Positions 1-55,761 are shown, counted from the stretch's first letter. The stretch: 55,761 bases of DNA from a virus (IMGVR_UViG_3300045988_162287), one strand, 5' to 3'. Numbers and translations: made by a program. Notes: generated by a model not told the origin, from the letters alone.

Positions 1-99
1 AATGTGCCCTGAGGCCTTGGAATCATTGGGTTTTCGGGGTGCCTGCATACTTTCGCGCGTTTTTTCTATCTCCTTATTATTTTAAAAAGAAAAAAAAAG
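1..99. repeat. 99-bp terminal direct repeat identical to 55663..55761 (circular-assembly overlap or terminal redundancy)
   Basis: aatgtgccctgaggcc...ttttaaaaagaaaaaaaaag occurs exactly at both ends of the window. Confidence 0.95.
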
Positions 100-40941: not shown

Positions 40942-41467
40942 TTCATCGCCATTTTTCAACGCATCATATATTCAATGGCTACGTCATCGTGTGAATTTCG
41001 ATGAATACGTCGATCTCAGCATGTCTCTTGCGTCCATACCATTCCGTTCCAGTGTCATGATGGACCGGAATCGGATATCCGATGGCGAGTCGTTACGTGA
41101 TGTATACACACGCCGAACCGGATATTCGTTGGTTGGCGGTATGCGAGGATGCTCAGTTCTTGAGTTCCTCGTCGCCTTGGCCGAACGGGTCAACGATGTG
41201 CTTGCCATCATCCCGGTCGACGCGGCATTCTCCATGTTCCTCGAAAACATGGATCTGACACGATGCTCGGATGACTGGTTTCTCAACCAGAGAGATCCGG
41301 AGTGTTATATTCAGGACCGATGCGACATCATGATGGATCGACAGTACCGACCTGACGGATCGGGCGGCGGACTCTTCATCGTTCATGATGATAAGGATAT
41401 CCGCCAATCCGAATGGTGGTGGCAGATGCAATATTGGCTCAACGAACAGTATATTCCCGACATGTAA
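40931..41467 (+). CDS. Hypothetical protein
   Basis: 178 aa, GGAGGAGG RBS, directly upstream of the replicase. Confidence 0.5.
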   Translation: MTSNSSPFFNASYIQWLRHRVNFDEYVDLSMSLASIPFRSSVMMDRNRISDGESLRDVYTRRTGYSLVGGMRGCSVLEFLVALAERVNDVLAIIPVDAAFSMFLENMDLTRCSDDWFLNQRDPECYIQDRCDIMMDRQYRPDGSGGGLFIVHDDKDIRQSEWWWQMQYWLNEQYIPDM

Positions 41468-41478
41468 AGGAGGCGAAG

Positions 41479-44355
41479 ATGGATCAAGTGCAGGTGCGTG
41501 TCAAAAAGACAAACAAGGGCCATGAATCCATATTCGCCGATCCGAAGATGCGAGGGTATCACGATCTGCTCGTCAAAGGCGGATCGTTTTATGCGGTGTT
41601 CGATCCGGATAGTCATCTCTGGTCGCAGAACCTTCAACGCCTTGGCGAGCTGATCGACCGTGATATTCAGGAGTTCGCCGACTCATATGAGTCTCCAGAC
41701 GGTAATGAAGTGACCTGCATGCTTATGCAGAACACCTCCAACGGTTGCTGGAACAGGTATATTTCCGGACTGCGCAATCTGGCCGATAGTGATGCGGTGC
41801 TCAATCAGCGGATCATATTCGCCAATGACACTCCGAAGCGCGAGGACTACGCCACCGTGCAACTGGAATACGCGATATCCGAGGGAGACACCTCGGCATA
41901 TGACCGGCTCATGAATACGCTGTATGCCCCATCCGAACGCGAAAAGCTCGAATGGGGCATCGGCGCCTTGGTCGACGGTAATGATATTCAACGCATCCAG
42001 AAGATGTTCGTCATCTATGGTGAGCCCGGAACTGGAAAGTCGACGATTCTCAATATCATCGAGATGCTCTTCCCTGGATACATCGCATATTTCAATGCGG
42101 AGGAACTCGGCAAGGGATATCAATTCAGTACCGCATCCTTCAAGAACTCTCCTCTCATCGGTATCCAGACCGACGGCGATCTGAGTCACATGTGGGACAA
42201 TACACTGCTTAATCAGATCGCTGCACATGAGAAGATCGTGGTAAACGAAAAGGGTGTCAAGCAGTACACCGTTCCGCTGAAAACGATGTTGTTCATGGCG
42301 ACGAATAAGCCGGTGAAGATCACTGACGCCAAGTCGGGCATCACAAGGAGACTGATCGATATTTATCCGACCGGCAACACGTTGAAACCGGATGATTATT
42401 TCGACTGCATGAAGCAAATCGGATTCGAATTGGGTTCCATTGCCTATCATTGTCGTGAGGTTTACAGGAAACTCGGGGTCAACCGATATTCCCAGTATCG
42501 TCCAACAGAGATGATCGCCAAGACGAATGATATTTATACGTTCGTTCAGGACAACATCGACCTCATGGACATCGATGAGCCAGTGCGTCTGACAGATTTG
42601 TGGCGTGCCTATAAGGAATGGTGTGAGGAAGCCCACATCACCGACGTCATGAAACGCTCCGAGTTCATGTTCGAACTGGCTTCATATTTCGAAATAATGA
42701 ACCGGGGAGCGAGTAAGGCAGTTACCTATCATGGATTTCAACGAGACAAATTCGAATCGAGAATCGTTGACTCTTCTGACCGACATGCTCGAGCATCCGA
42801 TGATGACCATATCTCGTGGCTTCGACTTGTTAAAACGGACAGTCGATTCGACGAACTCTGTCATGATTGCCCTGCGCAATACGCCAGAGACGATGAAAGC
42901 GGATCCCCAGTTGCCAAATGGGCCCAAGTCAGCACCACGCTCAAAGACCTCGACACCAGTCGACTTCATTGGGTTAAGGTTCCGGAAAACCATATCGTCA
43001 TCGACTTCGATATTCGAGGAGAGGATGGCGAGAAATCGCTTCAGGCCAATCTCGAGGCGGCCCGCAAGTTCCCTCCAACCTATGCCGAGGTGTCTAAGAG
43101 CGGACAGGGATTGCACCTCCACTATATTTACGATGGAGACGTATCCCGACTCAAAAACCTTTACGACATCCATGTCGAGATCAAGGTCTTCCGAGGCAAT
43201 TCATCGCTACGACGTCTGCTCTCACGGTGCAACGATCATGAGATTTCCCATATTTCAAGCGGCCTTCCGTTGAAAGGAGAAAAGTCCGTGATCAATCAGA
43301 AGGAACTCAAGGACGAACAGCATCTACGCAATGTCATCAAGAAGTCTCTGCGCAAGGAATGTTGTCCTGGGACCAAGCCGAGCGTCGAGTTCATCAAGAA
43401 GCTCATGGACGAGATGTATGAGTCCGGTAAACCGTACGACGTCACCGACATGCGTAATGAGATATTTGATTTCGCTTTGCGGTCGACGCATTGGTCGGAT
43501 TATTGCATCGTTCTGGTGAACGAGATGAAGTTCAAGTCCGATGATATTCCGAAGGGCAGCGATCCGAAGAACGCCGATATTCTCACCTTCTTCGATGTCG
43601 AGGTCTTTCCGAATCTGTTCATGGTCTGCTTCATGAAGAGCGATTCAGACGTCGTCAAGACATGGATCAATCCTCCGCGGCAGAACATCATGACACTGCT
43701 CGATGAGAATCTGGTGGGATTCAACAACCGCAAGTACGACAATCATATTCTCTGGGCGTGGGGTGTCATGGGATACAACAACGCCCAGCTGTATGATCTG
43801 TCGACGCGGATCGTCAGCGGTAACAAGAATTCCATGTTCGGTCAAGCATACAATGCATCCTACACGGATATTTACGACTTCTCCGCCAAGAAGCAGTCAC
43901 TGAAGAAGTGGGAGATCGAATTGGGCATCGACCATCATGAATTGGGCATGCCATGGGACCAACCGGTTCCGGAGGACAAATGGCCGTTGGTGCAATCATA
44001 TTGCGAGGATGACGTCAGGGCCACCAAGGCCGTGTTCGAACACCTCAAGGAGGATTTCACCGCACGCCAGATGCTGGCCATGCTCAGCGGCCTGACGGTC
44101 AACGACACCACCAACACCCATACCGCCAAGATCATATTCGGGAACAACAAGCATCCGCAGTCGGAATTCAACTTCACCGACCTTTCGGATATGTTCCCGG
44201 GATACACCTTCGACCGATACGCGCTCAAGGACAAGAAGTCCCAGTACATGGGCGAGTATCCTGGAGAAGGCGGCTACGTATTCGTCTACGGTATGGACAA
44301 CGGATACGGCGATTACAGTTATATGGAGATGAAGCATCCATGGGACACAAACTGA
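41479..44355 (+). CDS. Replicase fusion: D5/P4-type SF3 helicase + archaeo-eukaryotic primase-like domain + family-B polymerase 3-5 exonuclease/N-terminal part (upstream half of a split PolB)
   Basis: VIYGEPGTGKST (Walker A), LIGIQTDGD, LFMATN. HIVIDFDIRGED...SKSGQGLHLHYIY (AEP DxD and sGxGxH motifs). FFDVEVF, GFNNRKYDNHIL and SYCEDDVRAT (Exo I-III). The homologous sequence ends at ...GEGGYV, then a 24-aa tail. Confidence 0.75.
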   Translation: MDQVQVRVKKTNKGHESIFADPKMRGYHDLLVKGGSFYAVFDPDSHLWSQNLQRLGELIDRDIQEFADSYESPDGNEVTCMLMQNTSNGCWNRYISGLRNLADSDAVLNQRIIFANDTPKREDYATVQLEYAISEGDTSAYDRLMNTLYAPSEREKLEWGIGALVDGNDIQRIQKMFVIYGEPGTGKSTILNIIEMLFPGYIAYFNAEELGKGYQFSTASFKNSPLIGIQTDGDLSHMWDNTLLNQIAAHEKIVVNEKGVKQYTVPLKTMLFMATNKPVKITDAKSGITRRLIDIYPTGNTLKPDDYFDCMKQIGFELGSIAYHCREVYRKLGVNRYSQYRPTEMIAKTNDIYTFVQDNIDLMDIDEPVRLTDLWRAYKEWCEEAHITDVMKRSEFMFELASYFEIMNRGASKAVTYHGFQRDKFESRIVDSSDRHARASDDDHISWLRLVKTDSRFDELCHDCPAQYARDDESGSPVAKWAQVSTTLKDLDTSRLHWVKVPENHIVIDFDIRGEDGEKSLQANLEAARKFPPTYAEVSKSGQGLHLHYIYDGDVSRLKNLYDIHVEIKVFRGNSSLRRLLSRCNDHEISHISSGLPLKGEKSVINQKELKDEQHLRNVIKKSLRKECCPGTKPSVEFIKKLMDEMYESGKPYDVTDMRNEIFDFALRSTHWSDYCIVLVNEMKFKSDDIPKGSDPKNADILTFFDVEVFPNLFMVCFMKSDSDVVKTWINPPRQNIMTLLDENLVGFNNRKYDNHILWAWGVMGYNNAQLYDLSTRIVSGNKNSMFGQAYNASYTDIYDFSAKKQSLKKWEIELGIDHHELGMPWDQPVPEDKWPLVQSYCEDDVRATKAVFEHLKEDFTARQMLAMLSGLTVNDTTNTHTAKIIFGNNKHPQSEFNFTDLSDMFPGYTFDRYALKDKKSQYMGEYPGEGGYVFVYGMDNGYGDYSYMEMKHPWDTN

Positions 44356-44840
44356 TATTTGAACAGGACTGGAAGCCTTGGCCTAAAGATCCTAGAATAT
44401 TGGTATCCGATGAAGGCGATGTTCTTAGCTATCGCAGTGGGTCTTGGAAAAGATTAAAGCAAACCGATGGTGGAAGATATTTGACGGTTGGCATCAACAA
44501 TCCGACAGGAAAATCATACTTGGTTCATCGATTGGTCGCCGAGACATGGATCCCTAAAGAATCGGAAGATCTTGAAGTCAATCACATCAATGGCAACCGT
44601 TACGATAACCGAGTTGAGAATCTTGAATGGATCACCCATCAAGAAAACATCGACCATTCAAGAAAAACCGGTCTCGTTCCAAAAAGCTGTTCCACAAGAG
44701 TCCGAATTGTCGAAACCGGCGAGCTTTTCGATAGTGAAGCCGAATGCGCCAGAGCCATTGGTGGGCATTATAAAAATATTAGCAGCTGTCTTCATGGATG
44801 GCAAAAGACACATCTTGGATACCATTTCGAAAGGGGATGA
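44340..44840 (+). mobile_element. HNH homing endonuclease gene inserted in the PolB gene
   Basis: LVHRLVAETWIPKESEDLEVNHINGNRYDNRVENLEWITHQENIDHS (HNH_3-type) plus a C-terminal NUMOD1/IENR1-like VRIVETGELFDSEAECARAIG; GGAGA RBS. Confidence 0.8.
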
Positions 44841-44943
44841 ATGAAAATGCCGGTGGTGACAATAGACAAGATCAAAGTCGTTCCGAGAAGCAGCTATTTA
44901 TCATACTGGTTCTCGCCTTGTTCATCTATGGGAGGTAAAAACA

Positions 44944-45294
44944 ATGGGTAAGGTTTCGAGCTCCGAATCACCGGTTCGGTTCGTCAATGAAAACAAATAC
45001 AAGCATCCATCACATATCAGCGGAAGTTATCTATCACGATTGTTCCTTCACGGATATTTGATGGCACTTGGTATCGTCAGCACAAAACCAGATCCGAAGA
45101 AACGAGCTTTCTATGCTGAAGGGCTCGATGAAATCGATCTCATATCGCTTGTCGACGCCTATAACCATCATCTTGAAGGTGATGATGAACCGCTGAAGAT
45201 ATTTGGAAAGGAGCTACGACATGGGCGTAGCATGGATCTTCATTGGATACATCATCACATTGATATTCGTGATGTTGGTCATTCATGGAGGTGA
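44944..45294 (+). CDS. Hypothetical protein encoded within the PolB insertion
   Basis: GGGAGGT RBS, 116 aa, His-rich C-terminus, no recognised motif. Confidence 0.4.
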   Translation: MGKVSSSESPVRFVNENKYKHPSHISGSYLSRLFLHGYLMALGIVSTKPDPKKRAFYAEGLDEIDLISLVDAYNHHLEGDDEPLKIFGKELRHGRSMDLHWIHHHIDIRDVGHSWR

Positions 45295-45300
45295 TGACCG

Positions 45301-46401
45301 ATGGTAGAGAAAGAGGAACATCGTCTTGGCGGCATGTTCGGCAATGTCGGACTGCTCGACATCTCATCCATGCATCCTAGTTCGATCGTGGCCATGAATC
45401 TCTTCGGTCCATATACCGAACGGTTCGACGCCATCCGACAGGCCCGTATCTCCATCAAGCATAAAGACTTCGATCGATGTCTTGATATTTTCAGGAAATT
45501 CGTTCCCGAGGAACGCCTCAAGGATCTCGAACCCGTGCTCAAGGGCGAGGATTCCAAGGCGCTGGCCCAAGCTCTGAAGATCGCCATCAACGCGGTCTAC
45601 GGCCTGACCAGCGCCTCGTTCCCCACCCGGTTCAACGATGCGGCCAATCCGAACAACCGCAATCTCGACAACAAAGTCGCCAAACGAGGCGCCTTGTTCA
45701 TGATTGCGCTCAAGCACAAGGTACAGGAGCTCGGATACACCGTGGTCCACATCAAAACCGATTCGATCAAGATCGCCGATGTGGACCGCGATATCATCGA
45801 CTTCGTTACCGCCATGGGTAAACAATACGGATACAACTTCGAATTGGAGTCCATTTATGACAAGATGTGCATCGTCAACAAGTCCACCTACATCGCTCAT
45901 TCAGCCTACGGTGAGCACTGTGGTGAGTGGACCGCTACTGGGTTGCAGTTCCAAGTTCCTTATGTCTTTAAGACCCTGTTTACCAAAGAGCCCGTCGCTC
46001 TGGAGGATTTCCGAGAGACTAAATCGGCTCAGTCCAACATTTTCCTCGATTTCAACGAGGGACTTGGACCGGACGAGCATCATTACAGCTTTGTTGGTAA
46101 GGTTTCGGCCTTTTCCCCCGTCAAAGCGGGATGCGGAGGAGGTCTACTGGTACGTGAGAACAATAGAGGCGGTTACGATGCGGTATCTGGAACAAAAGGA
46201 TATCGCTGGAAGGAGTACTCGGTCATCCGAGACAATGGTCTTTCTTCAGAGATTGATCGATCGTATTACGAGCGATTAGCCAATGATGCCATCGACACCA
46301 TCGAACAATACGGATCGTACGAATGGCTGATCGACGAGAGTAGTCCATATTCCTCGCCGAATCCGGCATCGAACGATCTCATGAAGAGGCTGGCTACATG
46401 A
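45301..46401 (+). CDS. Family-B DNA polymerase, downstream (palm/fingers/thumb) half
   Basis: LGGMFGNVGLLDISSMHPSSI (motif A D..S[LM].PS), KIAINAVYGLT (motif B K...N..YG), VVHIKTDSIKI (motif C TDS); own GGAGG RBS 9 nt before the ATG. Confidence 0.8.
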   Translation: MVEKEEHRLGGMFGNVGLLDISSMHPSSIVAMNLFGPYTERFDAIRQARISIKHKDFDRCLDIFRKFVPEERLKDLEPVLKGEDSKALAQALKIAINAVYGLTSASFPTRFNDAANPNNRNLDNKVAKRGALFMIALKHKVQELGYTVVHIKTDSIKIADVDRDIIDFVTAMGKQYGYNFELESIYDKMCIVNKSTYIAHSAYGEHCGEWTATGLQFQVPYVFKTLFTKEPVALEDFRETKSAQSNIFLDFNEGLGPDEHHYSFVGKVSAFSPVKAGCGGGLLVRENNRGGYDAVSGTKGYRWKEYSVIRDNGLSSEIDRSYYERLANDAIDTIEQYGSYEWLIDESSPYSSPNPASNDLMKRLAT

Positions 46402-55662: not shown

Positions 55663-55761
55663 AATGTGCCCTGAGGCCTTGGAATCATTGGGTTTTCGGG
55701 GTGCCTGCATACTTTCGCGCGTTTTTTCTATCTCCTTATTATTTTAAAAAGAAAAAAAAAG
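55663..55761. repeat. 99-bp terminal direct repeat identical to 1..99
   Basis: Exact duplicate of the first 99 bases. Confidence 0.95.

Follow-up and report, generated by a model that had tools for sequence, protein, structure and literature searches.

The stretch of viral DNA analysed here, IMGVR_UViG_3300045988_162287 (55,761 nucleotides, nt; called the window below), contains a family-B DNA polymerase gene, polB, whose coding sequence is distributed over two open reading frames (ORFs), with a homing endonuclease gene of the HNH type lying between them. The first 99 bases of the window (1-99) are identical to the last 99 (55663-55761), so that it corresponds to a complete genome of ~55.66 kb (~55,662 bp), circularly assembled or terminally redundant. 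Five tightly packed cistrons follow one another on the + strand of the region: the N-terminal part of the polymerase (N half), the HNH gene, an ORF called orf116, a small hydrophobic ORF of 28 amino acids (aa) and the C-terminal part of the polymerase (C half). Their coordinates, and those of the smaller features, are collected in Table 1. An earlier interpretation made without database searches, called here the sequence-only reading, had described the polymerase as split by a ~1-kb insertion and had left a choice between a self-splicing group I intron and a free-standing homing endonuclease cassette; the 28-aa ORF is a gap gene additional to those it listed.

Table 1. Features of the two-part polB locus, in positions of the window.
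Feature	Coordinates	Strand	Description
PolB N-half cistron	41479..44355	+	958 aa; DUF5906/D5-like primase-helicase, family-B 3'-5' exonuclease, palm strand GGYV, 24-aa tail
N-half C-terminal tail FVYGMDNGYGDYSYMEMKHPWDTN	44281..44352	+	lineage-conserved; homologous tails in BitterVaud1, L054 and all split relatives
Left direct repeat CATCCATGGGA	44335..44345	+	11 bp; holds the HNH start codon; aligned to the empty L007/L005 sites
HNH homing endonuclease	44340..44840	+	166 aa, I-HmuI-like, HNH_3 and NUMOD-like DNA-binding tail; 16-nt overlap with the N-half stop
HNH cassette	44346..44933	+	588 bp; precise insertion, the empty site reading CATCCATGGGAGGTAAAAAACAATGGG; carried by the window, L004 and L011, missing in 19 of 21 close relatives
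Right direct repeat CATCTATGGGA	44923..44933	+	overlaps the orf116 ribosome-binding site (RBS) GGGAGG
orf116	44944..45294	+	116 aa, lineage-specific; conserved core residues 1-90 (44944-45213); GGGAGG ahead; 103-nt spacer after the HNH gene
Small hydrophobic ORF MGVAWIFIGYIITLIFVMLVIHGGDDRW	45221..45307	+	28 aa; stop overlaps the C-half start codon
C-half RBS GGAGG	45287..45291	+	9 nt before ATG 45301; equivalent RBS and ATG in all split relatives
PolB C-half cistron	45301..46401	+	366 aa; motifs A-C, fingers, thumb

The N half starts at ATG 41479, directly after the stop codon of the preceding gene and behind an AGGAGG at 41469-41474, and it ends with TGA 44353-44355. The start at 41413 given in an ORF listing is not retained, ATG 41479 being in agreement with both the beginning of the profile match and the annotated start in Bifidobacterium phage BitterVaud1. 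In PHROGs, the N half covers positions 1-949 of phrog_4210 ('DNA polymerase', 1304 positions) with E = 0, and the C half covers positions 953-1290 with an E value of 1.9e-119. The two ORFs thus lie end to end on a single 1304-position profile, far beyond chance. This contiguous match, together with the fold matches of both halves described below, bears out the earlier assignment of a family-B polymerase in two ORFs; a lack of contiguity on intact PolB sequences, which would have spoken against it, is not what was found. In the intact enzyme of ReqiPepy6 (1294 aa), the sequence across the junction reads SEGGYV-YAEPGLYHNV-AVLDVASMHPSS, with AVLD directly after YAEPGLYHNV.

Pfam recognises DUF5906 and Pox_D5 in the primase-helicase part of the N half, and PolB is barely detected, so the fold was tested directly by structure models. 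Three exonuclease motifs are present, Exo I FFDVEV, Exo II NNRKYDNH and Exo III YCEDD, and the residues D39/E41, N82..D87 and Y174..D178 are invariant or nearly so in 35 homologues. The AlphaFold model of the exonuclease region (predicted local distance difference test, pLDDT, 81) has RB69 gp43, Tgo, P. abyssi PolB, KOD and Pol II as its top Foldseek matches, with a probability of 0.97-1.0 and weak E values (~1e-2). A single-sequence search of the PDB with this region gave no matches. The patterns of a family-B exonuclease, Exo I (DxE), Exo II (Nx2-3[FY]D) and Exo III (Yx3D), are all found, along with an RNase-H-like domain.

The C half carries a short lead, MVEKEEHR, before homology resumes. 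The GGAGG and ATG 45301 previously assigned to it could be confirmed in the sequence. Motifs A (LLDISSMHPS), B (KIAINAVYG) and C (HIKTDS) are invariant in 36 homologues, with D20, K93, N97, Y100, G101 and T153-D154-S155 among the fixed residues. Motif C (45751-45768, residues 151-156) reads IKTDSI, and K152 is as invariant as the three residues that follow it in the same homologues. An AlphaFold model built from the 36-sequence alignment reaches a pLDDT of 90. Compared with the PDB by Foldseek, this model matches family-B polymerases only (Pol alpha, Pol delta, KOD, 9°N, Pol II and that of African swine fever virus, ASFV), with E values down to 4e-9, and a C-half profile matches E. coli Pol II across motifs B-C (E 0.0015). 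The palm, fingers and thumb with motifs A, B and C of a family-B enzyme are thus in place, motif C having K for its first D. The cluster of C halves at 98% identity comprises 859 member sequences.

At the split site itself, GEYPGEGGYV ends at 44280 and is followed by 24 codons and a stop, just as the sequence-only reading had stated. Those 24 residues had been called unrelated, which does not hold: the tail is conserved, and it matches the start of an in-frame loop of ~64 aa in a sister clade, typified by locus L024, whose polymerase is continuous. Its nonsynonymous divergence (dN) is 0.3-0.5 and its synonymous divergence (dS) is saturated. This pattern of substitution argues that the tail is coding sequence conserved as protein, and not intron read-through. 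It is predicted to be disordered when modelled alone.

The state of the site was followed in 51 loci found by a scan of IMG/VR and classed by tblastn and translation. Nothing longer than ~640 aa is shown in two protein-homologue listings, although the loci themselves include full-length relatives of 960-1370 aa; the lengths in these listings are therefore unfit for a census of split and intact forms, and the count rests on the 51 IMG/VR loci. A close group of 21 loci is defined by a C half at least 89% identical to that of the window. All 21 have the same stop and restart, and 19 of them lack the HNH gene of the window. Only two loci (L004 and L011) show the window arrangement, with the same HNH gene and orf116. 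Fifteen loci carry orf116 only; another (L023) carries orf116 and then a different HNH gene (52% identical) placed on the RBS and ATG of the C half; the last three (L013, L014 and L018) have neither gene, with 40-48 nt from the N-half stop to the C-half ATG. Stop, tail and restart are the same in HNH-less relatives at 96-98% identity, some of which are also devoid of orf116. The claim that the polymerase is split by the ~1-kb insertion is therefore not borne out, since 19 of 21 near-identical relatives are split without this HNH gene.

More distant relatives extend this picture. The closest GenBank phage, BitterVaud1, a cultured relative that infects Bifidobacterium asteroides, has its polymerase divided at this very point, with an N half ending GGYV-WVYGMENGDTDQDYQDIVPAWERKEQ and a stop, a C half starting with MTKAAKLGGIFGNV, and a gap gene that codes for a 213-aa protein unrelated to the HNH gene or orf116. 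In three loci with a C half 76% identical (L054-56; L054:1-6074), the split site and the tail are again the same, and the halves are separated by ~3.6 kb with ten small genes, annotated by nothing more than weak Pfam hints of DivIVA and PGDYG; this gap behaves as a cargo island. The persistence of the split in HNH-less relatives, and the unrelated gap genes of BitterVaud1 and L054, indicate that the split is older than the HNH insertion of the window. Relatives that are naturally two genes with unrelated intervening content had been named in the sequence-only reading as evidence against it, and they do exist. The locus L057 (1369-6137; C half 54% identical) is split ~25 residues further upstream, its N half ending with ...FNYRDLGKPVRP and a stop and its C half starting MSRVF...FFPGYTFDHG; the gap holds four small genes, none of which is an endonuclease gene. 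This is an independent fission.

Continuous forms are found as well. At ~62% C-half identity, 19 loci of the L024 type (L024:2992-7098) have a single 1368-aa ORF, in which the in-frame loop reads GGYV-WVYGMANG...PELPDKT-LGGMFGNV. This loop begins with sequence homologous to the tails found in split forms. At the same level of identity, L041 is split and carries a 54-aa membrane-type ORF, which differs from the 28-aa ORF of the window but occupies the same position. In L042-44, the N half ends in a long tail homologous to the L024 loop, and a third HNH type (45% identical) separates it from the C half. Further away (47-56%), seven loci and ReqiPepy6 are intact and devoid of the loop.

The identification of the HNH gene product as an HNH_3-type endonuclease with a NUMOD-like tail is confirmed by Pfam (HNH_3, E 5e-12; I-HmuI_NUMOD-like, E 4e-9) and by its closest solved homologue, I-HmuI (PDB 1u3e, E 1.4e-9). 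The protein belongs to phrog_59 (E 7e-43), its gene is single-copy in the window, and the motif VNH...N...N...H...N is kept in the three paralogous types. Its borders could be defined by the comparison with relatives that had been called for. In L007 and L005, the empty site reads ...CATCCATGGGAGGTAAAAAACAATGGGTAAGG; the window has CATCCATGGGA followed by CACAAACTGA... at the left junction and ...GTTCATCTATGGGA followed by GGTAAAAACAATGGG at the right one. Alignment of these junctions to the empty sites gives an insert of 588 bp. The 11-bp repeat motif flanking it occurs only twice in the 55.7-kb window. The HNH start is an ATG within the left copy, the RBS of orf116 is restored by the right copy, and the end of the tail is altered by the insertion, from ...PWEVKNNG to ...PWDTN before the stop. 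The features of a free-standing homing endonuclease are thus gathered here: an HNH motif with a DNA-binding module, a gene of its own, presence/absence polymorphism and precise borders. Judged from these alignments, the cassette is a recent and precise insertion into an already split gene. The GC content of the gap is 43-45% overall, against 48-60% in the polymerase halves.

Other HNH types have settled in the same gap, at two further positions. In L023 (5500-6030), the second type occupies the original RBS and ATG of the C half (GGAGGTGATGGCCGATGGTAGAG followed by GAATGG...), and a new AGGAGG and ATG (MTDKEEH) come after it. In L042, a 14-mer at the HNH start, TCATGGATGAACTT, is repeated 32 nt upstream, within the tail. 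Short duplications at the start codon are found at all three HNH insertion sites. The tail itself exists as two alleles. Allele A, identical to that of the window, is found in L003, L004, L007, L011 and L015; the second (L005, L016, L017 and others) is ~65% identical over 60 nt (44281-44340), next to an upstream flank that is ~87-99% identical. All HNH-bearing genomes have allele A, which is also found in three HNH-less ones. This mosaic is of the kind seen around homing endonuclease genes, and the alleles may represent a co-conversion tract or a cleavage-resistance allele.

The 116-aa ORF previously noted downstream of the HNH gene is indeed present, and it has no family match in Pfam or PHROGs. 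A protein search gave homologues in about 20 close clusters only, all from this lineage, and in all loci examined that carry orf116 it lies in this gap; it is deleted in L013, L014 and L018. The core (residues 1-90) has a dN/dS of 0.18-0.49 with respect to five relatives, hence purifying selection, and the 3' end is variable between relatives. The window form is frameshifted by a 1-nt deletion (GGAGC-TACGAC versus GGAGCATACGAC; 45210-45225), which lengthens orf116 from 95 to 116 aa, over the small hydrophobic ORF in another frame; this deletion may be genuine variation or an error of assembly. A relationship to the 213-aa gap gene of BitterVaud1 was considered and rejected (best E 0.15). The 28-aa ORF is conserved as a protein in L003, L004, L005, L007 and L017 despite divergent nucleotides and a 12-nt in-frame indel. 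On the strength of these comparisons, the tail, orf116 and the 28-aa ORF are all real coding sequence. Promoter- and terminator-like sites in the gap are not above shuffled expectation.

These data bear directly on the first option of the sequence-only reading, in which a self-splicing group I intron carrying the HNH gene interrupts polB and splicing restores one mRNA and a polymerase of ~1,300 aa. The option had its logic: the enzyme resembles I-HmuI, which is intron-encoded in the DNA polymerase gene of phage SPO1, the insertion adjoins a highly conserved catalytic motif, as introns typically do, and the upstream ORF overruns homology briefly before it stops. Almost all of 44281-45300 is nevertheless coding (tail, HNH gene, orf116 and small ORF), leaving a spacer of ~100 nt, each cistron is preceded by an RBS of its own, and the tail has evolved as a protein would. 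The gaps of 40-48 nt in HNH-less relatives are too short for a group I core, and gaps of 3.6 kb with ten genes are incompatible with a conserved intron. A continuous host gene is expected in relatives that lack the element, and 19 of 19 still have the stop, the tail and the restart. The group I covariance search that had been proposed came back empty: within 43800-45800 no Rfam 15 family matches even at E <= 10, and nothing in the window reaches its gathering score, large ORF insertions being able to hide such a core. When the 116-nt stretch 44835-44950, which includes the spacer, is folded, no RNA structure beyond expectation is seen (z = 0.57). With Rfam empty and the split kept without the HNH gene, the intron is not supported and looks highly improbable. 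The other option, a free-standing homing endonuclease next to a polymerase made as two polypeptides, is supported by the relatives.

The two halves might still be joined at another level, by a split intein, as in 'fractured genes', or by ribosomal bypass or recoding. In fractured genes, the two parts of a split intein do flank a free-standing endonuclease gene (PMC2677866). Inteins and split inteins could be rejected here, since the 24-aa tail starts with F or W, without an N-terminal Cys or Ser, and the C half has 5-9 extra residues without HN followed by C, S or T; no Hint or intein domain is detected by Pfam. Bypass of the T4 gene 60 type, where 50 nt are skipped beside mobA, was suggested by the GGA-TAG that ends the tail of L013. 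It was rejected as well, because the corresponding codons are GGG-TAG or GGG-TAA in close relatives and AAC-TGA in the window; the gap to be crossed in the window is 945 nt, and there are no conserved take-off or landing codons. Joining of the halves by either route appears the least credible of all the explanations considered.

Another possibility is that the polymerase is a decaying pseudogene, the phage being replicated by its host. The interrupted gene would fit, and so would the chromosome of Bifidobacterium thermophilum JCM 1207 (JGZV01000004.1; L058:6001-6876), where a C-half fragment only is found (residues 94-366, 60% identical). Both halves are, on the other hand, intact ORFs in dozens of genomes at 54-98% identity, each with its own RBS and start, and the catalytic residues are invariant, which makes decay very hard to believe. 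The chromosomal fragment, within 6 kb of which the N half was not found, is probably a prophage relic; it was the sole yield of a genome scan for hosts. Taken with the host of BitterVaud1, it points to Bifidobacterium as the likely host of the window phage, and the phage group is probably one of Bifidobacterium siphophages.

The organisation that very probably accounts for the locus is that of a polB ancestrally made of two cistrons, split in a surface loop, whose products assemble non-covalently; the gap would be a landing pad, in which the HNH gene was recently acquired, with no intron involved. The replicative enzyme would thus be a primase-helicase/family-B polymerase fusion supplied by two cistrons and interrupted in a surface loop peculiar to the lineage, after the palm strand GGYV and before the motif-A hairpin. 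The split would be ancestral to the phage group and independent of the gap content. Each half would be translated from its own Shine-Dalgarno sequence and ATG, the cistrons presumably being co-transcribed and the overlapping stop/start pairs translationally coupled. By analogy with known split enzymes, the halves are expected to assemble into one active polymerase without a covalent link. Beta-sheet complementation is a likely basis for this, the N-half strand GGYV(F/W)V pairing with the hairpin that opens the C half and bears the motif-A aspartate; in the C-half model, this hairpin is formed by strands 11-13 and 16-21, with a pLDDT of 96 for residues 11-20. The conserved tail may stabilise the interface between the halves. 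The gap would accommodate accessory and selfish genes, the window holding the HNH cassette, orf116 and the 28-aa ORF. In a co-infection, the HNH enzyme would, by analogy, nick or cut HNH-less alleles near its site, and recombinational repair would copy the cassette in.

The distribution of the split agrees with what is expected of a true split enzyme: the cistrons are collinear with an intact homologue, the catalytic residues are kept, and the split is conserved in diverged relatives. Several points nevertheless weigh against this two-cistron organisation. The assembly and activity of the heterodimer, as well as the endonuclease activity and target of the HNH protein, are deduced by analogy. 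The HNH gene has a weak or distant RBS, a GGAG placed 12 nt upstream. Motif C is KTDS where the canonical form is DTDS, yet it is invariant throughout the family, intact members included. Lastly, the polymerase of the sister clade (19 loci) is single and continuous, with its in-frame ~64-aa loop, and evolution could have proceeded from the loop first or from the split followed by re-fusion; the L024-type loop could accordingly be a precursor of the split or a re-fused scar.

This question of direction leaves some room for an HNH endonuclease as the cause of the split at a deeper level, where it would have landed in the loop and broken a continuous polB, to be later lost or replaced, leaving the gene permanently split. 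The arrangement of L042-44, with an HNH gene (45% identical) inside a long tail homologous to the in-frame L024 loop, is what a splitting insertion would look like, related HNH genes sit at three positions in the gap, and an equivalent uncertainty has been raised for phages 25 and 44RR (PMC2988022). Against this stand the cassette of the window, which demonstrably entered a gene that had been split before, the 15 close relatives that have orf116 only and no HNH gene, with L023 having only a different type, and the second, independent split of L057, with no endonuclease gene in its gap. Such an origin is possible, though doubtful. A broader proposal, somewhat more speculative still, is that this polymerase family undergoes repeated and reversible fission and fusion by homing endonucleases at the loop before motif A, with the tail as an assembly element, the L024 loop as a healed scar and the gap as a cargo slot. 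If so, the tail would be born from an endonuclease insertion or co-opted after it, and the gap would be a stable expression slot for up to ten genes, small membrane peptides included. The second split, in L057, would then make a natural map of the places where a family-B polymerase tolerates being cut.

Whatever its origin, the two-cistron organisation corrects an easy mis-annotation: the locus is not an intron, and the gene is neither broken nor freshly broken. In an abundant lineage, one and the same site is found in all states, namely intact, looped, split and empty, filled with one to ten cargo genes, and invaded by three HNH insertions. This is a well-populated natural series for the co-evolution of selfish endonuclease genes and essential genes. 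Two positions are also indicated where a family-B polymerase would tolerate expression as two chains, which could be of use in split-polymerase engineering.

Several known systems share part of these features. The HNH_3 core, the NUMOD-like module and the targeting of a phage DNA polymerase gene are common to the window enzyme and I-HmuI of the Bacillus phage SPO1 (PDB 1u3e). I-HmuI is encoded by an intron in a family-A polymerase gene, whereas the window enzyme is free-standing between family-B cistrons, and the first motif residues are D-H in the former and N-H in the latter. Naturally fragmented family-B enzymes whose parts reconstitute one enzyme are also known in archaea, where Methanobacteriales have a split PolB and Nanoarchaeum equitans one with a split intein (PMC4104785). 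Their origin has been attributed to intein excision or to a trans-splicing split intein (PMC4104785), in contrast with the window, where no intein remnants were found.

The nrdA-a/mobE/nrdA-b locus of Aeromonas phage Aeh1 provides another parallel, an essential, replication-related enzyme being split by or around a free-standing homing endonuclease of the HNH family (PMC3045599). The split NrdA is functional, and its tails are needed for assembly of the holoenzyme (PMC3045599). The enzyme concerned is there a ribonucleotide reductase, and the tails are AT-rich, foreign, of opposite charges and experimentally shown to be essential (PMC3045599), whereas the tail in the window is homologous to the loop of intact relatives.

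The closest precedent is the gp43A/gp43B pair of the Aeromonas phages 44RR and 25, in which PolB is split (Petrov, Ratnayaka & Karam 2010, as reported in PMC2988022). In that review, the gp43A and gp43B proteins of phage 25 are described as co-purifying and having polymerase activity, and its endonuclease as a possible invader of an already split gene. The likeness lies in the two collinear PolB cistrons, with a short intercistronic sequence in 44RR and a free-standing homing endonuclease gene in the gap of phage 25. A split phage PolB with a free-standing homing endonuclease in its gap has thus already been described there, and no new mechanism is involved. There, the endonuclease is of the seg type (GIY-YIG), as against an I-HmuI-like HNH enzyme here, the polymerase is a T4-type gp43 of myoviruses, as against a siphophage primase-helicase-PolB fusion, and phage 25 has a group I intron in 43B, none having been found in the window. 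The window case thus differs from its precedent in polymerase type, in endonuclease family, in having no intron and in its rich allelic series.

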